IMG/VR virus record: IMGVR_UViG_2974724996_000001
Span: 1 to 64,000 of that record
From: Oliverunavirus OLIVR1
Taxonomy: Duplodnaviria > Heunggongvirae > Uroviricota > Caudoviricetes > Schitoviridae
Length of the DNA stretch: 64,000 nt
Direction: 5' to 3' (one strand)
This document shows, piece by piece, positions 3,237 through 19,390 of this stretch (the stretch's first letter is position 1; every line of letters starts with the position of its first letter). Made by a program: the position numbers and the translations under genes. The notes beneath the pieces were generated by a model. It searched no databases. It worked only from the letters and a program-made list of their open reading frames with translations, and was not told where the DNA came from.

Positions 3237-3524
3237 ATGATCAGAAAGCTTCTTGATTACTTTCGTAATCGTACTCACAAATATAAAGTCGGTGATCGAG
3301 TAATATTTGTCAACGACTTCGGTGTCGTCTATCTATGGACCATTAGCGAGTTGACCACTTGGGAAACCGCCTCGGGGAAGGTCCTCCCAGCCTATCATCC
3401 CATGGGTACCCAGACACCTTGGTTCCCCTATGAGGAGTCTCGTCTCCATAAAGCCACTGATCTTGATAAGATGAGCACCCCTACCGAGCTTCAAAAGAAG
3501 TATGGCTTCACCCCAACTGAATAG
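3237..3524 (+). CDS. hypothetical protein
   Basis: ORF track 3099-3524; start reset to ATG 3237 (RBS aaggaaa) because upstream part overlaps the tRNA-like element. Confidence 0.4.
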   Translation: MIRKLLDYFRNRTHKYKVGDRVIFVNDFGVVYLWTISELTTWETASGKVLPAYHPMGTQTPWFPYEESRLHKATDLDKMSTPTELQKKYGFTPTE

Positions 3525-3959
3525 TATGGTTGTAAATGAAACCTCCTCATCATGTTCAAAACAAAGCAGTTCGTCCTTCATGGAAACAACTTTTCCGTGA
3601 ACTTAAATGCTCCATCTCTGGACATGTTTTCTATGTGGCATGGGGGAATGGCTACCGTGGTTTACCTCAGTCTCATTGTTTTTGTTGTGGTGTCAAAGGT
3701 CCTTCTGCCATTCCTTCTTGCGAAGAGTGGATAGAACCTATCGGTTGAACCAAAGAAATAAACTACTCCCCGAACGAAGTGAGGGGAAAATTACTTCCAC
3801 TAATATTAATTCGTCCATGAATAATGGATGATAGCCGGGGTAGCCCAAGCACAAGGCAAGAGGTTCTGTGAACAACGGAGATAGTGTGAGTAGGGTGGCT
3901 GATCTTCCTTTCAAGGATGCTCATTCACGAGTCTCACCCCCGGCACCAATTTAATCAAA

Positions 3960-4009
3960 GTGTATCTGATGAGTCCTTATTGGACGAAACGCATTAGGGC
4001 GTCATACAC
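3960..4009 (+). ncRNA. hammerhead ribozyme, type I (stem I open), minimal
   Basis: Stem I gtgtat(3960-3965)/atacac(4004-4009); core CTGATGA 3966-3972; stem II gtcc-ttatt-ggac 3973-3985 (G10.1-C11.1 present); GAAA 3986-3989; stem III cgc-attagg-gcg 3990-4001 closed by A15.1-U16.1; cleavage triplet GUC with C17 at 4003. Confidence 0.7.
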
Positions 4010-4284
4010 ACCTAGTAGAGAGCCACTCTGTGCTGCACGCAGATGAACTATGGGCATGTGGGATTGTTACCGGTAGCAGTCCAAGGGGTATAAGCAGAAT
4101 ACTCAAAGCTCTCACTATTAACTTCAAGGAATGATAGACATGGAATATGATTATTCTGAATATGGTTTTTGTTATGTGTTTCATAAACATAAAGTAGTCT
4201 TCATTTGTAGTCGTATAATTACAGAAGGATATCTATCCGCAGGTAGTATTCAATATGAGCAAGACACATTAGGAGAATAATATT

Positions 4285-5706: not shown

Positions 5707-5900
5707 TGGGCTTTAAAAGAATAGCGGGAATGTATCCGCATAAACACACCAAACGTAGATTTTATCGTTGGGCGGGAAAAAATCTTGGTGCGATTGTTGT
5801 AAAACACGAACGTATTATTCGAGATTATAAAGGTAATCTCTGGACTATTCGTACCTTCGTAGATGGTAAAATACTAATGATATCACGAGTATGGACATAA
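5706..5900 (+). CDS. hypothetical protein
   Basis: 64-aa ORF overlapping previous stop. Confidence 0.4.
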   Translation: MGFKRIAGMYPHKHTKRRFYRWAGKNLGAIVVKHERIIRDYKGNLWTIRTFVDGKILMISRVWT

Positions 5901-11844: not shown

Positions 11845-12026
11845 TTAAGAGAACTCAAATCATTCTTGAACACGGCGATCTATTCAAAGCAATCAAAGAC
11901 CACATTGGCCGACAAGATGGCATGAGTGCCGGTGATGTCTGTAATTTTCACATCTCTTTTGAGAACGACAAACCTGTCGTAACAGTCAATCTCTCTGACA
12001 AGAAGGTAGAAAACAGTGGACTATAG
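11841..12026 (+). CDS. hypothetical protein
   Basis: 61-aa ORF, coupled. Confidence 0.4.
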   Translation: MIKRTQIILEHGDLFKAIKDHIGRQDGMSAGDVCNFHISFENDKPVVTVNLSDKKVENSGL

Positions 12027-12408
12027 TAAAGCAATATTCGTCTTTGGCTCTAATGAAGGCGGTTTCCATGGTGCTGGTGCAGCCAAGTTTGCGCTGGATC
12101 ATAAGGGTGCCATCCTACGTGTCCCTGAAGGCCCACAAGGCCAATCCTACGCAATTCCTACCAAAGATACATCCATTCGCAATACCTTATCTCTTGAAGA
12201 GATACAGCGATACGTAGTTCGCTTCATTGCTTATGCAATGGTTCATCCTGAATTGAAATTCCAAGTCACTCGCATCGGCTGTGGCCTCGCTGGTCTCAAG
12301 GATGAGGAAGTTGCCCCGATGTTCATTGGAGCACCTGACAACTGCTGGTTTGATACCGCATGGGAACCATGGGTAGGTGAGGACCGAAATTACTGGGGCC
12401 ATAAGTAA
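12016..12408 (+). CDS. conserved phage protein, possible Rossmann-like fold
   Basis: 130 aa; N-terminal IFVFGSNEGGFHGAGAAKFA glycine-rich motif. Confidence 0.4.
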   Translation: MDYSKAIFVFGSNEGGFHGAGAAKFALDHKGAILRVPEGPQGQSYAIPTKDTSIRNTLSLEEIQRYVVRFIAYAMVHPELKFQVTRIGCGLAGLKDEEVAPMFIGAPDNCWFDTAWEPWVGEDRNYWGHK

Positions 12409-12629
12409 TGGACAGCGTTAGCGACTGGCCATTCAACCCCGCAGGAGGCATCTTTGTTACTGTGGCTGGAAACAATAGCTTTGGGATTAGTAAGGATAAT
12501 CGGCTTATCCATTTTCCTACTAATGGAACAAACTCAGAAGAGGTTAAAGACCTCGGGCCTGCTACGGCCAGAAACATCGAGTCGCTTAAATACGCTCTTG
12601 AGCGACTTGCTATCCACTCAACAGACTAA
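12408..12629 (+). CDS. hypothetical protein
   Basis: 73-aa ORF; protein-like composition, preferred over the overlapping 5' extension of the next ORF. Confidence 0.4.
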   Translation: MDSVSDWPFNPAGGIFVTVAGNNSFGISKDNRLIHFPTNGTNSEEVKDLGPATARNIESLKYALERLAIHSTD

Positions 12630-12648
12630 TGATCCAAAGGAGAAAGCC

Positions 12649-13464
12649 GTGGACTTGCAGACTGCACAAATCGATATGGAGAAAATGTTCCATAAAAACC
12701 AGCTTCATAGCCGGATTAAAAAGGAATTCGTAAACTCAGATATCGACTTCCGGACCGCTTTTACTGAGATCGGTATTGATCATAAATTCGGGTTCGACCT
12801 ACTTGTGCAAATGGTTCTGTATAAGCGTGTCAACCTCCCAACGCTTGTTGGTATCCTGCGTCGTCATTATCAGGGCGATTGCCAAAAGACCGCTGACGCT
12901 CTCTTGACGGCAGCAAAGCACAATCTAGTTGATTGGGCTGCAAACATCGAAGTCTTCATCATTCGCTTTGATATTGATGCTGAAGTGATGAATGAAATTG
13001 AAGTCTATCAATACCCACTTCCCATGATTGTGGAACCAAAGGAACTGAGGAACAACCGTGACACAGGTTACTTCACTAAAAAGGACTCTGTGATCCTCAA
13101 GAGCAACAACCATCATGATGACGATGTGTGTTTGGATTTCTTGAATAAGATTAATAAAGTAAAGCTCAAGGTCAATTCTGACACTGTAGCTTTCCTCAAA
13201 AATAACTGGAAGAACCTCGACCGTCCAAAGCCCGGTGAAGAACGTTCAGAATATCAGAAGCGTGTCAAGGCTTTCAACAAATATGACCGGACTTCCAAAG
13301 ATGTCCTGACTCATTTGGAAACCATGGGTGGAGAGTTCTATCTTACCCACAAATATGACAAGCGTGGCCGTGTTTATTGTCAAGGTTACCATGTAACTTA
13401 TCAAGGTAATGACTGGAACAAAAGTTGTATAGAATTTGCGCATGGAGAGTTAGTTGAAGACTAA
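12649..13464 (+). CDS. T7-like single-subunit RNA polymerase, small subunit (N4 RNAP II p4A-like, N-terminal half)
   Basis: GTG 12649 with RBS aaggag; 271 aa ending ...YDKRGRVYCQGYHVTYQGNDW..., matching the T7 RNAP DWRGRVYAV...NPQGND region; stops where 17656-18867 resumes the alignment. Confidence 0.7.
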   Translation: MDLQTAQIDMEKMFHKNQLHSRIKKEFVNSDIDFRTAFTEIGIDHKFGFDLLVQMVLYKRVNLPTLVGILRRHYQGDCQKTADALLTAAKHNLVDWAANIEVFIIRFDIDAEVMNEIEVYQYPLPMIVEPKELRNNRDTGYFTKKDSVILKSNNHHDDDVCLDFLNKINKVKLKVNSDTVAFLKNNWKNLDRPKPGEERSEYQKRVKAFNKYDRTSKDVLTHLETMGGEFYLTHKYDKRGRVYCQGYHVTYQGNDWNKSCIEFAHGELVED

Positions 13465-13978
13465 GAAATTACCGCCACAAGATTACCTTATCGAACGGCT
13501 CTATTATGATCCGGTATCAGGTTGCCTCTGGTGGCGGGAGCATCCTGCCATGCACAAGAGGTGGAACAATAGGTACGCTAATCAGCGTGCCTTTACTGCT
13601 CAAGATAAGAAAGGTTACCATGTAGGTGCAATAAACGATGTGCAGTATCGAGCTAATCGTATCATCTTCAAAATGCTCTACGGTTACGACCCTATTCAAG
13701 TAGATCACGATAATGGGGTCACTAATGATGATCGTGTAGTAAATCTTATCGAAGTAACCCACACAGGTAATCAACGAAACATGAAACTATCCAAGGCCAA
13801 TAAGTCAGGGGTAGTTGGTGTTTCGTGGAATACTGAAAAAGATATGTGGGAAGCCACCATCGGCATTAAAGGTAAACGTGTCGTGATTGTCCGTTCGCCC
13901 AATAAACAAGTTTGTATTGACGCTCGTCGTCAAGCCGAAATTGATGAGGGATATCATCCCAGTCATGGAAAACGATAG
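13454..13978 (+). CDS. HNH homing endonuclease with AP2 DNA-binding domain
   Basis: TTG start overlapping the upstream stop; VDHDNGVTNDDRVVNLIEVTHTGNQRN is the HNH_3 motif; GVVGVSWNTEKDMWEATIGIKGKRV is AP2-like. Confidence 0.8.
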   Translation: MKTKKLPPQDYLIERLYYDPVSGCLWWREHPAMHKRWNNRYANQRAFTAQDKKGYHVGAINDVQYRANRIIFKMLYGYDPIQVDHDNGVTNDDRVVNLIEVTHTGNQRNMKLSKANKSGVVGVSWNTEKDMWEATIGIKGKRVVIVRSPNKQVCIDARRQAEIDEGYHPSHGKR

Positions 13979-14333
13979 TGGAGTTCGCTCATGGGGAACT
14001 CTTGGAGGATTAATGCCTAATCCTGGTAACCATCCCAAATGCCCTCGTTGTAAAGGCGAGGGCTTCTACCTTGCCTATGAGGGCAAGGGATACATGTATG
14101 ACGGTTCCTTCTCCCACAATCGGTGGGAGGACTGCCGCTGTTACCCTGAGATAAAGGAGAGCGAATTGCCTCGCTCCCTCGATCCGCCGCCAATTTATAC
14201 CATTGTGCATCATCCGAAGAACCCGAAGCAATGGTACTGGCTCATCATTCACCGTGATCGGAGAGGCTCCTTTAGGCGTCCTCAACGTATCCACACATTG
14301 GGATTGGATGGAATAAGTGGAGAGTGTTTCTAA
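13965..14333 (+). CDS. zinc-ribbon protein (CPRC...CRC)
   Basis: Start set to ATG 13965 in track ORF 13887-14333; two Cys pairs. Confidence 0.35.
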   Translation: MENDSGVRSWGTLGGLMPNPGNHPKCPRCKGEGFYLAYEGKGYMYDGSFSHNRWEDCRCYPEIKESELPRSLDPPPIYTIVHHPKNPKQWYWLIIHRDRRGSFRRPQRIHTLGLDGISGECF

Positions 14334-14622
14334 AGCCAGACATCGTAAACAAGCTGCCCTCATTAGGAAACTGAAGAGAGAGCTTCGGGATGCCCAATAC
14401 AAACGGTACGTCATTCGAATGCAATGGCGTTCCGGCAAGTGCAACGGTGATCCAAGAAATTGGAGATCGTGGCGTACCTTCGCATCCGTACCTATCCTCT
14501 TCTATTCTGAGGAGGAAGCATGGGGCTATTTCTATGAGCACGATGTACTGAAGAATGCTGGCCGTAAGGCATCAGCATCTGTGGAAGTCGTCTGGCTACC
14601 GGAGAAAATCAATGAAAGCTGA
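14317..14622 (+). CDS. hypothetical basic protein
   Basis: 101-aa ORF. Confidence 0.4.
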   Translation: MESVSKARHRKQAALIRKLKRELRDAQYKRYVIRMQWRSGKCNGDPRNWRSWRTFASVPILFYSEEEAWGYFYEHDVLKNAGRKASASVEVVWLPEKINES

Positions 14623-14959
14623 TCTAATCTTACCCGATGGCAGCGTACTTGAATACAAAAGTGTGAATGACTCATTAGCTGATGATCGTTATCGGCTTTT
14701 GGTTATTGATGACATGTGTGCTGTTAATCGCTTCATGAACGGTCACGATGTAGCTCTGACTGAAAGCGAACAGACCATCCTTTATCGATTTGTCGCTGAC
14801 GAATTTGATAGGCAGATGGAAAACATGTTGTTCCGTGCTCCCATCCGTAAACCTTACCAGCCTGTGGATTACCACAGCACCAAAATTGGTAAGACCCGAG
14901 CTAAGCTTCTCAAGAAACGAGCCAAGGACAAAGCCAACCGCAAGAGGCCAAGGAAGTGA
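14612..14959 (+). CDS. hypothetical protein
   Basis: Start set to ATG 14612 (RBS ggagaaaa). Confidence 0.4.
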   Translation: MKADLILPDGSVLEYKSVNDSLADDRYRLLVIDDMCAVNRFMNGHDVALTESEQTILYRFVADEFDRQMENMLFRAPIRKPYQPVDYHSTKIGKTRAKLLKKRAKDKANRKRPRK

Positions 14960-15423
14960 GCAGATACAAGGAAGACATCAAAGCAGGCGACAAGGTTATA
15001 TGCCTTGTCGGCTACTATAAATCATATGGGATCGGGGACATAGCAACAGTTGTACGTCTCGACATCAGCGGTGCAGGTAACCCTGTTCTCATCCTCAAAA
15101 ACCCCCTCAGTGACTGCGGCACATCGATGTATTCCGTCGATAACTGGAAGTTCCACAGCAGACCCAAGGAGATTAAACACATGGGCTACGCTCGTACCCT
15201 CTATTTCGCTGGCAAGCTCGCCAACTTTGTTGAAGAGCAGGGCCAAATCCCACGCATCTCTGATCGTACCATCGGACGGCACAGCAAGTCCGAGGTGATC
15301 AAGGACGTTCGTGCCGTCATTCAAGACGGTGAACAGTGGGTTGTCCTTCAGACTGTTGGCTTCATCAAGACCAAAGAACCGGTACCGGAACTGGCACAGG
15401 TCGAATTTACCGAGTGCCGCTAA
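14956..15423 (+). CDS. hypothetical protein
   Basis: 155-aa ORF, GTG start overlapping previous stop. Confidence 0.45.
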   Translation: MSRYKEDIKAGDKVICLVGYYKSYGIGDIATVVRLDISGAGNPVLILKNPLSDCGTSMYSVDNWKFHSRPKEIKHMGYARTLYFAGKLANFVEEQGQIPRISDRTIGRHSKSEVIKDVRAVIQDGEQWVVLQTVGFIKTKEPVPELAQVEFTECR

Positions 15424-15469
15424 TTTCTTTTCCTCGGCTCGGTTAACCGAGTAATCAGGAGAATAATCA

Positions 15470-15586
15470 ATGTTCTTCAAACTCATCGGGGTCATTGTGA
15501 TCCTCGTCACCTTGGTAGTAGGGGCTTACTGGTTAGCCACTAATATCGGTTTCAACAAGAACCAGAAAACAAAGAAGAGGAAGTGA
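15470..15586 (+). CDS. tiny single-pass membrane peptide (38 aa)
   Basis: ATG 15470 with RBS aggagaa; MFFKLIGVIVILVTLVVGAYWLATNIGF then a lysine-rich tail; immediately precedes the SPFH gene. Confidence 0.4.
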   Translation: MFFKLIGVIVILVTLVVGAYWLATNIGFNKNQKTKKRK

Positions 15587-15591
15587 CTCAA

Positions 15592-16440
15592 ATGAGTCTG
15601 CGTTCAATCATCGGCCTGCTGTTTGCAGGTATTATCGGAGTAATCACCCTTGGCGTCATCGGCGGATCGTTCTATACGGTCGATGAAGGTGAAAAGGCAG
15701 TCATCCTCCGTAACGGTGCCGTCACCGGCATTGCTACTCCCGGGTTTCACTGGAAAGCTCCTTTCCTCGACTCAGCCGTGGACATCTCCCTGCGTGACGA
15801 GACGATCACCTTCGATGAAGTCAAGGCTTACACCAAGGACAGCCAGACAGCGACCGTGCATCGTATTTCCATCACCTACCGTGCGAAGCCCGGTAATGAT
15901 GACGTGCTTGCCATATATAGCCGTTATGGCTCGGTTAAGAATGCTGTCAGCCAGATGGTCACACGTCGCGTCAGCGAGTCCCTCGAAACTGTATTCGGCC
16001 AGTTCACTGCCGACACAGCAATCAAGGAGCGTGAAAAGCTTGGTCAGGAATTCTCCAAGCGTATCCGCAACATTGATGGTCCCGTTGAAATCCTCTCTGC
16101 TCAGATCGAGAACTTCTCTCTGCCTGACAGCTATGAGCGGAACATCGACGCCAAGATGAAGGCTGAAGTTGCTGAAAAGCAGGCGGAAATCGATAACCGT
16201 ACAGCGGTTGCCAATGCCAACGCTGCTGCCACTGTCAAGAGGACAGAGGCTGATGCCTCTGCCCATGCTGTTCGGGTGCAGGGCGAAGCTGAAGCTGCTG
16301 CTCTCCGTGCCAAGAACGATGCCATCAAGGAGTCTCCGAACCTGATTGAGCTTACAAAAGCTCAGCAGTGGGATGGAAAACTCCCAACTACATTCGTTCC
16401 CGGATCGGCTGTTCCATTTCTGAACCTGCCATCTAACTAA
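15592..16440 (+). CDS. SPFH/band-7 (stomatin/prohibitin/HflKC-like) membrane protein
   Basis: N-terminal TM helix followed by ...YTVDEGEKAVILRNGAVTGIATPGFHWKAPFLDSAVDISLRD... typical of SPFH domains; alanine-rich coiled-coil C-terminus. Confidence 0.7.
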   Translation: MSLRSIIGLLFAGIIGVITLGVIGGSFYTVDEGEKAVILRNGAVTGIATPGFHWKAPFLDSAVDISLRDETITFDEVKAYTKDSQTATVHRISITYRAKPGNDDVLAIYSRYGSVKNAVSQMVTRRVSESLETVFGQFTADTAIKEREKLGQEFSKRIRNIDGPVEILSAQIENFSLPDSYERNIDAKMKAEVAEKQAEIDNRTAVANANAAATVKRTEADASAHAVRVQGEAEAAALRAKNDAIKESPNLIELTKAQQWDGKLPTTFVPGSAVPFLNLPSN

Positions 16441-16509
16441 ATAACCTTTTTGGTTTCCTGATCTACGGATCAGGTTTCCCAACAAGTTACTCAAATAAGG
16501 AGACAAGTA

Positions 16510-16701
16510 ATGGCTGAACCAAAGGAAATACCCACATATACAGCGATGTATTATATAGAAGCTGGTTATCTCCACAAAAAATCCTTCATCGGTAACGACC
16601 ATGAGGACGTGCTGAAACAGATCAAGGCCGACGAAGGCGACAAAGTCGAGATCGTTGCCATCTGGATCGGGGACATTCCTGATCCCATTTGGATTGGTTA
16701 A
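16510..16701 (+). CDS. hypothetical protein
   Basis: 63-aa ORF, RBS taaggag. Confidence 0.45.
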   Translation: MAEPKEIPTYTAMYYIEAGYLHKKSFIGNDHEDVLKQIKADEGDKVEIVAIWIGDIPDPIWIG

Positions 16702-16704
16702 GCT

Positions 16705-16983
16705 ATGGATCCTCAGCATTACCCTACACTGTCTACATATCGCCGTAGGAAGCTCAGGGAAGCGTATGTCGAGGAACAAGAGGGCAAGTGCCACCACTGC
16801 CATCAACCCCTCTCAGGGGAGCCAAATCAAAAGGTGAGACGTGCTTCTATTAATGAGAGCCGTTTTCCTGTTGGCTTCTTCAAACATCCTGTCCATCTTC
16901 ATCATAATCACAATACTGGTATGACCATCGGTGCGGTCCATGCCAAATGCAACGCAGTCTTATGGCAGTATCATGGTGAGTAA
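16705..16983 (+). CDS. endonuclease VII-like HNH nuclease
   Basis: CHHCH ... HLHHNHNTGMTIGAVHAKCNAVL matches the endonuclease VII family pattern (CxxC ... DHDH.TG..RG.LC..CN). Confidence 0.6.
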   Translation: MDPQHYPTLSTYRRRKLREAYVEEQEGKCHHCHQPLSGEPNQKVRRASINESRFPVGFFKHPVHLHHNHNTGMTIGAVHAKCNAVLWQYHGE

Positions 16984-17655
16984 ATGGTCAACTGAGACTG
17001 CCTTAAAAGCATCCGGAATACGGGTTCCTCTGAACCCGTTCAAGAGGAAACGGAAACGCAATCAGCAGGACCGGTTCCTCAACAAGAGGGAAGCATCTGA
17101 GCATCCTTCTCATCACGCGAAAAGGTGAAAAATGTTCGAACTGACGGCGATCCGTCTAAGTAGTGATCGATGGTGAAGCAGGAGAGGCACGCAGTCTTTG
17201 CGCAATAACCTAAACTGGTCATGAATGACAGTTACTGGTCTTTGAAAAGAAAGTAAGAACTCATAAAGAAACGATTAGCTCTTGATCGATGTCAAGGCCA
17301 CGAAAGGGTGGTTACCTTAAATTCCAAAAGAGTTGTCATCCAAGGATGGAGACGATTTCCGGTCTCTGCAAAACCGGTACATATAGCCAAAACCACATAT
17401 GACGCTAGGTCGTGGTAGGCATTTGTCGCTCAGCCCATTTGGGTATTCGGAGTGAGAACTACTCTAGGCCCGCTAACTGCCCTCATCAGTAAAGCCCGCC
17501 AATCATCATCAGGTGACTCTACGATCCAGCAACACTGCATGTATGAAATACGTGTAATGCTATGACGATAGCAACGGGAGCACGTCCCACGATACAGTCA
17601 CTGCTGCGATCAATAGCGCCATCGCTATTACTGAACCTATTAGTCTAATAAGGAG
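16984..17655 (+). other. 672-bp ORF-free region immediately upstream of the RNAP large-subunit gene
   Basis: No ORF over 30 codons with an RBS on either strand; many local inverted repeats; ends at RBS taaggag. Confidence 0.4.
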
Positions 17656-18867
17656 ATGACTATGTTTGAAACCTTCACTGCCAAGCAGTACCTGAAGATC
17701 GATATCGCCAACAACTTCGGTGATAACCTTGATAAGGCCCTGTGGCAGGATCGTATCAAGTGGTTTGATGACAATGAACATCAGCTTGAAGCAATTGCCA
17801 AGAATGCTGATGAGCCTGCTCTTTATTGTGCAGGTGTACGAGCATGGCGTAATGCCCAAAAAGGCAACGTCAACCATTACCCAATCTCTCTGGATGCAAC
17901 ATCATCCGGAATTCAAATTCTGTCTGCACTCACCGGTGACCGCAAGGGAGCCGAAGTATGCAACGTAGTGGATGTTGGCGAGCGACGTGATGCCTACAAA
18001 TTTCTCTATGAAATCATCGTCAAGAAGATCAACGGCACTGCCAAGATCGACCGCAAGGATACTAAGCGGGCTATCATGACGGCTTTCTATAATTCTGAAG
18101 CTGTTCCGAAGGAGGTCTTTGGAGAAGGTCAATTGCTCACCACCTTCTACGAAACCATGGGTGAAGAGGCTCCCGGTGCGTGGGAACTTAACGAAACCAT
18201 GAAGGACCTCTGGAACCCAAAAGCTCTTAGCAATGACTGGGTTATGCCTGACAACTTCCATGTTCACGTAAAAATCATGGGCCAACAAACTGATTATGTT
18301 CAGTTTTTAGATAAACCCTATGAAGTAACCTATGCAATCAATACCTGCATCGAAAAGGGTCGTTCATTAGGCGCTAACATGACGCACTCTATTGACGGCA
18401 TGATCGTTCGTGAAATGGTTCTGCGTTGCAACTACGACCAGAAGAGCATTGTATGGCTTCTTGGTCTGTTGGAAGGCAAAGCCTCTATCGAAGCGAACCC
18501 AGAAAACAGTAAAATGATGCAGACACTCTGGGGTCATTATACTGACTGTGGTTTTCTCTCCGCACGTATCCTTGACTATCTCGATGATGAGTCCATCAAG
18601 TTGGTCGATAAAGTCGTAATCTTCGATCTTATTGCAAGTCTTCCGAAACATCCTTTCGAAGTTATTGCAGTACATGATTGCTTCCGTTGCTTGCCAAACT
18701 ACGGCAATGATCTTCGTCGTCAATATAACCAGCTTCTTTCCAATATTGCCAAATCTGATTTGCTTAGCTTCTTGCTTTCGCAAATTATAGGTAAACTGGT
18801 AAAGGTTGGTAAGCATGATCCAGAACTCTGGAAAGACATCCTCGAAAGTAACTACGCACTTTCTTAA
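17656..18867 (+). CDS. T7-like single-subunit RNA polymerase, large subunit (N4 RNAP II p4B-like, C-terminal half)
   Basis: 403 aa; ISLDATSSGIQILSAL (T7 LAFDGSCSGIQHFSAML), KRAIMTAFYNS (motif B KRSVMTLAYGS), NMTHSIDGMIV (NFVHSQDGSHL), IAVHDCFRCLPNY (motif C HDSF). Confidence 0.85.
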   Translation: MTMFETFTAKQYLKIDIANNFGDNLDKALWQDRIKWFDDNEHQLEAIAKNADEPALYCAGVRAWRNAQKGNVNHYPISLDATSSGIQILSALTGDRKGAEVCNVVDVGERRDAYKFLYEIIVKKINGTAKIDRKDTKRAIMTAFYNSEAVPKEVFGEGQLLTTFYETMGEEAPGAWELNETMKDLWNPKALSNDWVMPDNFHVHVKIMGQQTDYVQFLDKPYEVTYAINTCIEKGRSLGANMTHSIDGMIVREMVLRCNYDQKSIVWLLGLLEGKASIEANPENSKMMQTLWGHYTDCGFLSARILDYLDDESIKLVDKVVIFDLIASLPKHPFEVIAVHDCFRCLPNYGNDLRRQYNQLLSNIAKSDLLSFLLSQIIGKLVKVGKHDPELWKDILESNYALS

Positions 18868-18875
18868 TACCTTGG

Positions 18876-18905
18876 CCTCACACTTCGGTGTGGGGTCTTT
18901 TTAAT
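18876..18905 (+). terminator. rho-independent terminator
   Basis: cctcacac-ttcg-gtgtgggg then tctttttaattt. Confidence 0.7.
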
Positions 18906-18933: not shown

Positions 18934-19290
18934 ATGTTAATGGAAAATCGAGAGGCAATTCTTGCTCGTATTACTGACCGTATATTAATCCAAGATTTAG
19001 GCTTTCTCCTGAATGGAGTTCCTAGCCCTTGTCATATTTGGCAAGGTGGGACTTCAGGAAACGGCAGAGGCGGTGGCTACGGACGGATGTCCCTGTACGG
19101 ATGTACTACAGCGGTTCACATCGTCATGTGGCGACTTCACAATGGTCCTATCCTGCCTAAAAGGCAAATTGACCATATGTGTAATAACCGCCTCTGCTGT
19201 AATATTCTTCACCTTCAAATGGTGACCAATCTCAAAAACCAAAGGCTTAGAGCCAAGAGAGCTAAGGAGGCTCTATACTACCATGTCTGA
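18934..19290 (+). CDS. HNH homing endonuclease (HNH_3 type)
   Basis: 118 aa; G..GYGR...G...AHIVMWRLHNGPI...IDHMCNNRLCCNILHLQMVTNLKN. Confidence 0.75.
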   Translation: MLMENREAILARITDRILIQDLGFLLNGVPSPCHIWQGGTSGNGRGGGYGRMSLYGCTTAVHIVMWRLHNGPILPKRQIDHMCNNRLCCNILHLQMVTNLKNQRLRAKRAKEALYYHV

Positions 19291-19356
19291 CAATGTTCTC
19301 GCATACGGCCTGCTGTTGAGCAGGTACAGGCAATTCAAAAACATCTGTACTAAGTG

Positions 19357-19390
19357 AAGCCCTCCTAGAAATAGGGGGGCTTTTTTATAT
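19357..19390 (+). terminator. rho-independent terminator
   Basis: agccctcc-tagaaata-ggggggct then tttttat. Confidence 0.7.

Follow-up and report, generated by a model that had tools for sequence, protein, structure and literature searches.

For the prokaryotic prohibitins (SPFH4), a periplasmic orientation and a link to FtsH have been predicted; they were described without an operon partner, at a time when none of them had been the subject of a study (Hinderhofer et al. 2009; PMC2636767). Agrobacterium phage OLIVR1 encodes a protein that resembles them in its length, N-terminal anchor, SPFH domain with a long helix, prohibitin-like C-terminus and predicted periplasmic orientation, but it differs, together with most of its phage-borne relatives, in having a dedicated micropeptide gene in front of it. 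The HflK/HflC-FtsH system of Escherichia coli has the same kind of fold, that of an SPFH cage protomer anchored at its N-terminus and facing the periplasm, and HflK is the best PDB sequence match of the OLIVR1 protein (6.7e-7; Foldseek E ~1e-14 for HflK/HflC). However, OLIVR1 has one SPFH gene where E. coli has the K/C pair, a link to FtsH would be by analogy, and the scores for the NCBIfam hflK and hflC models, 40 and 33 bits, lie below the respective cut-offs of 159 and 134. SPFH-NfeD operons (QmcA-YbbJ, stomatin PH1511-PH1510) also join an SPFH gene to a dedicated membrane partner, the two being co-transcribed, and QmcA is among the fold matches. In the phages, in contrast, the partner is 32-45 aa long (61-67 aa in a form found in some contigs) with one TM helix, has neither the OB-fold NfeD domain nor a Pfam match, and is encoded in the opposite gene order; the SPFH domain of QmcA is cytoplasmic whereas that of OLIVR1 is predicted to be periplasmic. 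An NfeD partner is indeed absent from the locus, as the initial annotation had implied.

The window, the whole 64,000-nucleotide stretch analysed here, matches OLIVR1 (N4-like, Schitoviridae) at 100%. The gap of interest is bordered on its left by RNAP1, the N4 gp15 homologue (12523-13464, plus strand; GenBank gp44), with 50.7% identity to N4 RNAP1 and 65% to that of ZX86 by tblastn, and on its right by RNAP2, the N4 gp16 homologue (17662-18867, plus strand; Pfam RNA_pol 1e-17), with 54% identity to N4 RNAP2. These genes are ~50 nt apart in N4, 0.5-2.7 kb in relatives and 4.2 kb in OLIVR1, and the earlier claim of inserted DNA agrees with the empty gap in N4; every ORF that it named is present on the plus strand, at or near the positions assigned. 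We read the 4.2-kb stretch as a hypervariable accessory island between both subunit genes of the N4-type RNA polymerase II, within an overall explanation, layered assembly plus a membrane cage, that we regard as moderately probable.

What stands out in the block is the pairing of a prohibitin/SPFH protein with a very small, as yet unnamed membrane peptide that is found again in many phages. The SPFH gene (15592-16440, plus strand; the ORF can also be read from 15583) encodes a 282-aa SPFH/Band_7 protein of the prokaryotic prohibitin type, and profile searches bear out the assignment (Pfam Band_7 2.9e-29; phrog_200 5.9e-52). PDB sequence matches are to HflK and prohibitin, and an identical protein at NCBI carries the name 'prohibitin family protein'. 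An N-terminal TM anchor is followed by the SPFH domain, a 69-residue helix and a conserved C-terminal motif, W-D-G-K-L-P...P-G...P-F. The AF2 model (pLDDT 85.8) has the same TM helix, SPFH domain and 69-residue helix, and full-length Foldseek matches are to the solved cage protomers of erlin, HflK/C, PHB1/2, stomatin and QmcA (E 1e-16 to 1e-11); as modelled, the protein has the cage-protomer fold.

The gene in front of it (15470-15586, plus strand), which lacks a GenBank annotation, encodes a 38-aa single-pass TM micropeptide (MFFKLIGVIVILVTLVVGAYWLATNIGFNKNQKTKKRK); AGGAG precedes its ATG by 8 nt, and its stop lies 5 nt before the SPFH ATG. It scores 33.7 bits (E=2e-9) against a leave-one-out family HMM, for which the best unrelated ORF among the 1,936 small ORFs of the window scores 5.3 bits. 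Alignment of 37 diverse members shows G7 and G18 to be invariant, 11 residues apart, and the family has a basic tail. Judged by this profile, the ORF is a member of a so far unnamed family of micropeptides that accompany phage prohibitins. Such a peptide lies directly upstream of the SPFH homologue at 66 of 84 viral and 20 of 78 genomic loci, proportions that apply to close relatives only because the loci are the best 80 matches of each scan; it is absent from the other 18 viral and 58 genomic loci and therefore is not obligatory for such SPFH proteins. The family profile gives 87 matches of at least 15 bits, all of them no more than 400 nt upstream of an SPFH gene on the same strand, and no other ORF in the SPFH loci reaches 15 bits (26,409 small ORFs scanned). 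By a cruder criterion, any small TM ORF, the background upstream of other ORFs is 3.5%. The distance from peptide stop to SPFH start is mostly -10 to +3 nt. A search with the peptide alone returned 30 proteins, each 35-44 aa long, with no Pfam domain and with either no name or the label 'hypothetical'; in all three reverse look-ups checked a Band_7 gene comes next. The initial proposal that the 38-aa peptide is a true partner of the SPFH protein is thus supported by this pairing and by the confinement of the profile matches, and the distribution of the 15470-16440 module, which had been put forward as a check, shows the pair recurring in many phages.

An analogous pair, a small two-TM protein with an SPFH lipoprotein, is present in four Schitoviridae genera including that of N4 (N4 gp19-gp20, S6 gp044-045, QDWS595 gp45-44, Moo19 gp30-31). 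The suggestion that an SPFH gene is alien to N4-like phages is accordingly not supported: N4 gp20 and its S6, QDWS595 and Moo19 homologues are SPFH proteins, each following a small membrane protein. The two kinds of pair come from one phage family, and their SPFH proteins, each of ~280 aa, have 29% identity and a common C-terminal W-[DN]-G-x-L-P-T-T-x-x-P-G...P-F motif; in both, the small membrane protein in front has a C-terminal tail that is basic, and it adjoins or overlaps the SPFH start. They differ in that the N4-type partner has 62-68 aa and two TM helices, with N4 gp19 going undetected by the micropeptide profile (-9.9 bits), that the N4-type SPFH protein is a lipoprotein with a lipobox Cys whereas that of OLIVR1 is TM-anchored, and that the N4 pair lies ~1.4 kb downstream of RNAP2 rather than between RNAP1 and RNAP2. 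By analogy, the OLIVR1 pair is best explained as a functional counterpart of N4 gp19-gp20.

Our best guess is that the pair forms an SPFH cage that faces the periplasm and has the peptide as a subunit. The prohibitin would be anchored N-in/C-out and oligomerise to a periplasm-facing inner-membrane cage, like HflK/C or mitochondrial prohibitin; the micropeptide would lie N-out with its basic tail in the cytoplasm, packing through its conserved glycine face as a stoichiometric membrane-embedded subunit or client of the cage. Expressed with the early genes, as its position between genes that are early in N4 would suggest, the pair may fence off a patch of membrane, and during infection it would most likely serve to change either the integrity of the membrane or the way in which the host controls the quality of its membrane proteins (FtsH-type proteolysis, as HflK/C and mitochondrial prohibitin suggest by analogy). 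This role, in a layered island, is one that we consider rather probable.

Superinfection exclusion or (anti-)defence, in which an early membrane pair would block entry of competitor genomes or neutralise membrane-acting abortive-infection effectors, seems to us unlikely, if the best of the alternatives. Its early-region position and membrane location fit such a role, as does the presence of the module in Agrobacterium and Brucella/Ochrobactrum genomes, within regions that resemble prophages; its neighbours are phage genes in the sole such region examined gene by gene. The SPFH pair also adjoins a P22 gp17-like 'superinfection exclusion' gene in N4 and Moo19, but adjacency to this gp18 homologue is confined to the Enquatrovirinae, and strictly lytic phages of widely differing types commonly carry the module. 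PADLOC gave no family except one marginal match (PDC-S54, E=0.0076), and the literature searched held neither support for an exclusion or defence role nor an experiment on it.

N4-like phages typically have a long, high-yield infection. A cage that buffers envelope stress or controls holin-related events independently of FtsH, thereby stabilising the membrane or timing lysis, we hold to be somewhat less likely again. Published links of bacterial SPFH proteins to membrane stress responses speak for it; in addition, OLIVR1 has an rIIA homologue a few kb downstream of the module, and RHph_N1_10 has one near its SPFH gene. Weak holin matches exist for one of the 37 peptides (a PHROG) and for N4 gp19 (a Pfam family, E=0.038), but they are insignificant, and neither in OLIVR1 nor in most of the inspected loci does the module adjoin lysis genes.

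The preferred explanation, a periplasm-facing cage encoded in a layered island, extends to how the island was assembled. At its left end is a 174-aa HNH_3 homing-type endonuclease gene (13454-13978, plus strand; Pfam HNH_3 8.2e-10). Its TTG start at 13454 is right and the GenBank start at 13550 too short, because the match to phrog_99 ('HNH endonuclease', 4.1e-44) spans residues 1-173. Homologues occur in 2,140 phage records; N4-like phages of Pectobacterium have the best of them (43%), and in EE36phi1, too, the gene adjoins RNAP1. The gene had been called an HNH-AP2 HEG: its identity as a mobile homing-type endonuclease is supported and the HNH_3 part stands, whereas Pfam AP2 gave no match and the top PDB sequence match, an AP2 factor, has E=0.68, so that an AP2-like DNA-binding domain at the C-terminus is possible. 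Like other free-standing HNH_3/phrog_99 homing endonucleases it abuts a conserved polymerase gene and carries a recoded duplicate of the end of its target; it departs from them in its weakly supported AP2-type domain.

The duplicate is seen in the last 11 codons of RNAP1. The present 3' end (EFAHGELVED*; 13432-13464, plus strand) and a downstream segment (EFAHGELLED*; 13981-14013, plus strand) agree in 9 of 10 residues but differ in 9 of 10 sense codons (22/33 nt identical). The downstream segment can be aligned with IEFANGETLD*, where the RNAP1 of ZX86 ends, and shares the GATTAATGCC junction found there: in both phages the TAA overlaps the start codon of the gene that follows (TAATG). Stops are present upstream in the frame of the OLIVR1 segment. 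Codon by codon, then, the current end reads as a synonymously recoded copy brought by the HNH gene, and 13981-14013 as the orphaned relic of the ancestral end. The comparison identifies the HNH gene as a separate insertion, whose scar closes at 14013, before the gene described earlier as encoding a Zn-ribbon protein.

That gene (14012-14333, plus strand), with probable start at ATG 14012 rather than GenBank's 13944, is 53-57% identical to ZX86_30 of Ochrobactrum phage ZX86, which stands immediately after RNAP1. The ORF and its CxxC...CxC motif are present, and no family matched significantly (best PADR1 Zn-ribbon, E=0.03-0.04), leaving 'Zn-ribbon-like' as a description. A 155-aa ORF (14956-15423, plus strand), for which GenBank gives the antisense ORF gp49c, has a homologue in the same gap of RHph_Y38 (EVB52_031; 32% identity, E=1e-15). 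At the right end, a 92-aa protein (16705-16983, plus strand) has the HNH beta-beta-alpha-Me motif HLHHNHNTG...HAKCN and matches phrog_14729, a PHROG of unknown function, at 1.9e-33; its designation as endonuclease VII-like is weakly held, with endonuclease VII PHROGs at 1e-5 and 1e-3 and Pfam Endonuclease_7 at 20.3 bits, below the cut-off of 23.6. Homologues are found in the same gap of RHph_I1_6, N38 and Y38 (61-66%) and in Vibrio and Pseudomonas N4-like phages (50-60%). From these comparisons, the three genes form a resident layer common to related rhizobial N4-like phages. Of the other small ORFs, all on the plus strand, that of 101 aa (14317-14622; GenBank has 14390-14551 in another frame) has no Pfam, PHROG, NCBIfam or PADLOC match and no homologue in the relatives' gaps; that of 115 aa (14612-14959, GGAG upstream of ATG 14612; 134 aa from 14555) has a basic C-terminal tail and no family match; and that of 63 aa (16510-16701), with a strong RBS, AAGGAG, has neither a family match nor convincing similarity to same-position ORFs of relatives.

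The peptide-SPFH pair is a further, separate acquisition, with B1VFA-like rhizobiophages as the likely donors. B1VFA-like contigs have the nearest SPFH relatives (69%) in the same peptide-SPFH order. The 11 Rhizobium records listed as SPFH matches include no N4-like rhizobiophage, and the SPFH query matched nothing in the four gaps compared from rhizobial N4-like relatives. GC climbs from ~45% to 50-54% over 15400-16400; the module has 53%, the window 45.5% and the likely donors 58-60%. The left edge of the GC-richer segment is marked by a 14-nt perfect palindrome, CTCGGTTAACCGAG (15438-15451), between the 155-aa ORF and the peptide gene, and the right edge by a hairpin, CCTGATC-TACG-GATCAGG then TTTCC (16457-16474, plus strand), directly 3' of the SPFH stop, for which the terminator scan made no call. 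An insertion scar of the module was looked for and none found.

The island was thus built in at least three layers: resident small genes (the CxxC protein, the 155-aa ORF and the endonuclease VII-like protein); a free-standing HNH homing endonuclease that entered the end of RNAP1 with a recoded 3' end, orphaning the original downstream; and a two-gene membrane module, putatively from B1VFA-like rhizobiophages, in which the micropeptide would be translationally coupled to an SPFH4-type prohibitin. So compared, the block between the two RNAP genes is a mosaic of older genes and later acquisitions and not one mobile cassette. The initial annotation had taken 13454-16983 to be HEG cargo that moved whole between two bounding nucleases, and there is a nuclease at either end and part of the block is richer in GC than its flanks. 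This is very improbable: three interior or end genes are present in situ in relatives, the HNH gene has its own scar ending at 14013 and is separated from the SPFH module by four ORFs, of which two or more are resident, the endonuclease VII-like gene is kept at 50-66% across many N4-like phages, and the block was found at no related locus.

GenBank annotates the genes of the peptide-SPFH region on the wrong strand, placing a 'band 7-like protein' on the minus strand, where an antisense ORF of 344 aa does exist, but that ORF has no NCBIfam or PADLOC match, the plus-strand ORFs have the Band_7 match and homologues, and protein-level features of the peptide are kept across 27 SPFH lineages, delimited at 80% identity, while the DNA diverges, and we give next to no credence to the 38-aa ORF being a chance ORF or mere leader and/or the minus-strand gp49c-gp52c being the real genes. 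The ~680 bp between the endonuclease VII-like gene and RNAP2 (16984-17661) hold no convincing gene, with no Rfam match, tRNA or homologue of the relatives' ORFs, and include a conserved hairpin element (17425-17459) common to OLIVR1 and Autographiviridae rhizobiophages.

The sequence is a 100% match to Agrobacterium phage OLIVR1 (MT234338.1), an N4-like podovirus of the genus Oliverunavirus within the Schitoviridae. The block considered here is flanked by gp44 (RNAP1, 12523-13464) and gp57 (RNAP2, 17662-18867), homologues of N4 gp15 and gp16, which make up the two-subunit RNA polymerase II; the paper describing OLIVR1 does not mention this region (PMC10132094). RNAP1 and RNAP2 are ~50 nt apart in N4 and ~0.3-0.6 kb apart in N4-like phages of Klebsiella and Achromobacter. 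The spacing is 0.5-1 kb for RHph_X3_15 and ort11, 2.2-2.7 kb for ZX86 and the Demetervirinae of Rhizobium, and 4.2 kb for OLIVR1, and in the relatives examined it is occupied by small genes. The gap is thus a plastic island. Rfam and tRNA scans of the gap gave no match. All of the ORFs named in the initial annotation are present on the plus strand, and that annotation grouped those at 13454-16983 as the cargo of a single homing endonuclease cassette. This reading is not supported: three of the OLIVR1 gap genes occur in situ in the gaps of relatives, and the HNH gene is a separate insertion with its own scar.

The HNH gene (13454-13978) abuts RNAP1 and has a secure HNH_3 domain (Pfam 38.6 bits, cut-off 24.8). 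The additional AP2 assignment is tentative, with no Pfam AP2 match in the protein, including its C-terminal 70 aa searched alone, and only a weak PDB match to AP2IX-6 (E=0.68). In a profile search the match to phrog_99 spans residues 1-173, and the TTG start at 13454 is therefore right and the GenBank ATG at 13550 too short. Alignment with Ochrobactrum phage ZX86, which lacks the insert, is informative. The ZX86 RNAP1 ends in IEFANGETLD, with its TAA stop overlapping the ATG of the next gene (GATTAATGCC), which encodes a CxxC protein. The same junction is present in OLIVR1 at 13981-14013, where it encodes EFAHGELLED and a stop; it begins two bases past the HNH stop codon and has in-frame stops upstream. 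The functional OLIVR1 RNAP1 terminus lies at 13432-13464 and encodes EFAHGELVED, so that the HNH gene is flanked by a recoded duplicate of the RNAP1 end: nine of the ten residues are the same, nine of the ten sense codons differ, and 22 of 33 nt are identical. We infer from this duplication that the HNH gene arrived together with a replacement of the last 11 RNAP1 codons, displacing the original end, and the scar has the pattern that would be expected if a homing endonuclease had passed from one N4-like phage to another. It illustrates how such an enzyme can insert beside an essential gene and leave it intact, and it also shows that the CxxC gene begins at the ATG at 14012. A member of the same HNH family also adjoins RNAP1 in Sulfitobacter phage EE36phi1.

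A second HNH_3 endonuclease gene (1.1e-13; 18934-19290) lies directly after RNAP2, between terminator-like hairpins at 18874-18897 and 19356-19383; a relic or duplicate of the RNAP2 3' end was looked for after this gene and is absent. The match to RNAP2 is broken in two in JWAlpha and JWDelta, both Achromobacter phages, and the RefSeq JWAlpha record has an endonuclease annotated between them.

Other gap genes have relatives in N4-like phages. The CxxC protein (14012-14333) shares 53-57% identity with the product of the gene directly after RNAP1 in ZX86; its Zn-ribbon label rests on a CxxC...CxC motif, which is present. The 155-aa ORF (14956-15423) has 32% identity (E=1e-15) to a gene within the RHph_Y38 gap. 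The small protein encoded at 16705-16983 shares 61-66% identity with genes in the gaps of RHph_N38, Y38 and I1_6, 50-60% with Vibrio and Pseudomonas N4-like phage proteins, and 41% with one from Brochothrix phage A9. Because homologues are found in so many phages, this is a conserved small protein kept across N4-like phages and not the homing nuclease at the end of a cassette. Its designation as an endonuclease VII is less secure: there are matches to two endonuclease VII PHROGs, phrog_2914 (1e-5) and phrog_423 (1e-3), and a CHHC...HLHHNH...HAKCN motif, in which the second Cys pair is partly replaced, but the Pfam score (PF02945, 20.3 bits) is below the cut-off of 23.6. The best match is to phrog_14729 (1.9e-33), a PHROG without known function, and a PDB sequence search returned no match. 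In Vibrio phage JA-1 the gene (3748-4101 of the collected locus) seems to be split or frameshifted, and the annotated part is the C-terminal 42 aa only. A 63-aa ORF was considered as the positional homologue of the ORF preceding the endonuclease VII-like gene in relatives, and the alignment is unconvincing.

The island also contains a two-gene module consisting of a 38-codon ORF (15470-15586) encoding a micropeptide with a single transmembrane (TM) helix and a gene for an SPFH protein (15592-16440). The SPFH assignment is strong, with a Band_7 (PF01145) score of 102.8 bits against a cut-off of 23.6 (E=2.9e-29). The AF2 prediction (pLDDT 85.8), which is of the monomer only, gives the 282-aa protein an N-terminal TM helix (residues 3-24), an SPFH domain of strands and helices (26-176), a 69-residue helix (179-247) and a conserved C-terminal tail. 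Foldseek returns full-length matches to solved cage protomers, including erlin, HflK/C, prohibitin (PHB), stomatin and QmcA (E 1e-16 to 1e-11), and the modelled protein has the architecture of a cage protomer, with an anchor, an SPFH alpha/beta domain, a long coiled-coil helix and a C-terminal cap. Among PDB sequences it matches HflK (6.7e-7) and prohibitin (1.7e-6) about equally well, and NCBI names the identical protein a 'prohibitin family protein'. It is not an HflK or HflC equivalog (TIGR01933, 40.3 bits, cut-off 159.4; TIGR01932, 33.2 bits, cut-off 134.4), and the OLIVR1 record contains only this one SPFH gene and no K plus C pair. Nor does an NfeD gene encoding an OB-fold domain adjoin it: the partner is 38 aa long, and no Pfam family was found in 37 micropeptide members or in neighbouring ORFs. 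The distribution of charges, with R4 before the TM helix and DEGE after it, predicts an N-in/C-out topology and a periplasmic SPFH domain. A periplasmic SPFH domain has been proposed for the prokaryotic prohibitins (SPFH4), which have also been proposed to substitute for HflK/C (PMC2636767). None of 162 close SPFH relatives, including those without a micropeptide, has a lipobox.

An AGGAG lies 8 nt ahead of the micropeptide ATG, and the ORF ends 5 nt short of the SPFH ATG. Similar ORFs precede the SPFH gene in rhizobiophage B1VFA, Mesorhizobium phage Cp1R7A-A1 and Logan contigs. Loci with SPFH relatives were gathered from viruses and from genomes, 80 of each (the best 80 of each scan). By a crude criterion, 47 of 147 other distinct SPFH genes are preceded by a small TM ORF; for the other ORFs of these loci the figure is 31 of 879 (3.5%). 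The micropeptides align without gaps through the TM segment, with invariant glycines G7 and G18 exactly 11 residues apart and a K/R-rich tail following. When a profile of the family was run against 26,409 small ORFs of the loci on both strands, all 87 matches at 15 bits or above were located on the same strand as an SPFH gene and at most 400 nt upstream of it, with none elsewhere. The tiny peptide is thus a partner gene, as had been surmised. Among these best-matching loci, those with enough upstream sequence number 84 for viruses, of which 66 have the peptide, and 78 for genomes, of which 20 do; the only one of the latter to be inspected gene by gene comes from Agrobacterium and resembles a prophage. 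The distance from micropeptide stop to SPFH start is mostly -10 to +3 nt, and this short spacing suggests that the two are translationally coupled. A leave-one-out profile scores the OLIVR1 micropeptide ORF at 33.7 bits, and the next, unrelated ORF of the window at 5.3. Used by itself against 5.8 billion proteins, the peptide profile retrieves 30 of 35-44 aa, all unnamed or 'hypothetical' and without a Pfam domain, and a Band_7 gene directly follows in the three of three checked by reverse look-up.

The SPFH-micropeptide pairing is real and widespread in phages, and apparently undescribed so far. The family is represented in neither Pfam nor PHROGs, and a literature search on phage SPFH function, anti-phage SPFH proteins and small-protein partners of prohibitins found no relevant study. 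SPFH proteins occur in 294 of 50,697 phage records; the authors of PMC13239085 state that the role of phage SPFH proteins "remains unclear". SPFH genes accompanied by a partner in their operon are already known, and the pair is a variation on that pattern; a survey of prokaryotic SPFH proteins found SPFH4 to lack an NfeD homologue and named no other partner (PMC2636767). Prokaryotic prohibitins had been described without any partner. A conserved and probably translationally coupled micropeptide offers a concrete two-component handle on the phage SPFH class.

Two variations on this arrangement were seen. B1VFA-like phages have a second conserved small TM ORF (46-47 aa, MRPED(I/M)NTIN...) directly upstream of the micropeptide (5737-5877 in loci L006 and L008, 2235-2378 in L002), forming a three-gene arrangement; this ORF is absent from OLIVR1. 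A group of IMG/VR contigs encodes a longer micropeptide of 61-67 aa with an extra conserved tail, FKRQPERYTYK.DEAGNEYVQDN (for example L073 2739-2924, L029 2739-2930, L044 2745-2930).

Several features point to a separate acquisition of the module by horizontal transfer. Searches returned no SPFH match in rhizobial N4-like relatives, either among the 11 Rhizobium records listed or in the four gaps searched, and the nearest SPFH proteins (69% identity) are encoded on metagenomic contigs that resemble rhizobiophage B1VFA (118-122 kb), where the gene adjoins NadM and NAMPT genes. The GC content of the module is 53%, compared with 45.5% for the window and 58-60% for the B1VFA-like contigs, and the module is bracketed by a palindrome (15438-15451) and a hairpin (16457-16474). 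A repeat search found no direct repeats flanking it, and a promoter and terminator scan gave nothing informative.

SPFH proteins are nonetheless not foreign to N4-like phages, contrary to the initial annotation. A spread listing of tblastn matches contains weaker SPFH homologues in several Schitoviridae, and N4 gp20 is a Band_7 protein (1.2e-23) with the same C-terminal motif as the OLIVR1 protein, to which it is homologous (29% identity over 214 aa, E=3e-25, BLASTP). N4 gp20 has a lipobox, whereas the OLIVR1 protein does not. It is preceded by gp19, a 68-aa protein with two TM segments and a basic tail whose stop codon overlaps the gp20 start; the OLIVR1 peptide has one TM segment, and gp19 scores -9.9 bits against the micropeptide profile and is not a family member. 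The two pairs are therefore analogous and not demonstrably homologous. The gp19-gp20 arrangement is also present in Erwinia phage S6, Alcaligenes phage QDWS595 and Shigella phage Moo19. The N4 pair is downstream of RNAP2, whereas the module of OLIVR1 is placed between its two polymerase genes; OLIVR1 has no copy of gp19-gp20 at the N4 position, and seems to fill their role with a rhizobiophage-type module in the polymerase gap.

By analogy with the solved cages, the phage prohibitin would form a ring or cage around a patch of the inner membrane from its periplasmic side. The positive-inside rule predicts an N-out/C-in orientation for the micropeptide. The face bearing its two glycines would pack on another helix, most simply the SPFH anchor, and the micropeptide may be a stoichiometric subunit, in line with translational coupling. 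HflK/C and mitochondrial prohibitins regulate FtsH-type proteases; the cage structures of prohibitin relatives are known and their clients mostly are not. Since HflK/C and prohibitin act on FtsH-type proteases and SPFH4 is a proposed stand-in, our leading guess is that the module modulates membrane-protein quality control early in infection.

A role in superinfection exclusion or defence is a live alternative. In the Enquatrovirinae the gp19-gp20 pair is directly downstream of a P22 gp17-like gene (N4 gp18, 3269-3583 of its locus; Moo19 gp29, 378-692), annotated in Moo19 as 'superinfection exclusion', and this neighbour is a weak contextual hint of a conflict-related role. PADLOC gives only marginal matches, to PDC-S54 for the SPFH protein (0.0076) and to PtuB for the endonuclease VII-like protein (0.004). 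Membrane stabilisation or a role in lysis timing is likewise a live alternative. A bolder form of the quality-control proposal, which we consider rather unlikely, makes the micropeptide an obligate subunit of the prohibitin cage, embedded in the membrane, and the pair a viral HflK/C mimic, capturing or reprogramming host FtsH or another inner-membrane machine early in infection; the short basic cytoplasmic tail would then act as a pseudo-substrate or adaptor, and gp19-gp20 would have met the same need independently. If so, prokaryotic prohibitins would have their first known dedicated partner in the micropeptide.

Six genes in the GenBank records of OLIVR1-3, gp49c-gp54c (15022-17222), including two designated 'band 7-like', are placed on the minus strand and appear to be on the wrong one. 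The 344-aa minus-strand ORF has no NCBIfam or PADLOC match, and the overlapping plus-strand ORFs have the Band_7 domain and homologues in other phages; at least gp49c-gp52c are thus most plausibly shadow ORFs. In the OLIVR1 record neither the micropeptide nor the endonuclease VII-like gene is annotated, and the micropeptide is also unannotated in Cp1R7A-A1 and one Agrobacterium prophage, an example of how small ORFs drop out of annotation. Upstream of RNAP1, a 130-aa ORF (12016-12408) covers GenBank gp43 ('N4 gp14-like') and overlaps gp42 in another frame, and the gp14 homologue of OLIVR1 is probably annotated in truncated form; the corresponding position in ZX86 is occupied by a 'macro domain protein'.

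Finally, the window contains one copy of a 35-nt element, GTCGCTCAGCCC-NNNN-GGGTATTCGGAGTGAGAAC (17425-17459, with wider similarity over 17423-17541), that is common to the early regions of the unrelated Autographiviridae rhizobiophages Alfirin, Paso and RHph_TM34 and of a single IMG/VR contig. Neither covariation nor an Rfam match was found for it. The element folds into a hairpin interrupted by an internal loop, its stems are nearly invariant (one substitution, at the last base) and its loop is variable, and it may be a processing or regulatory site.
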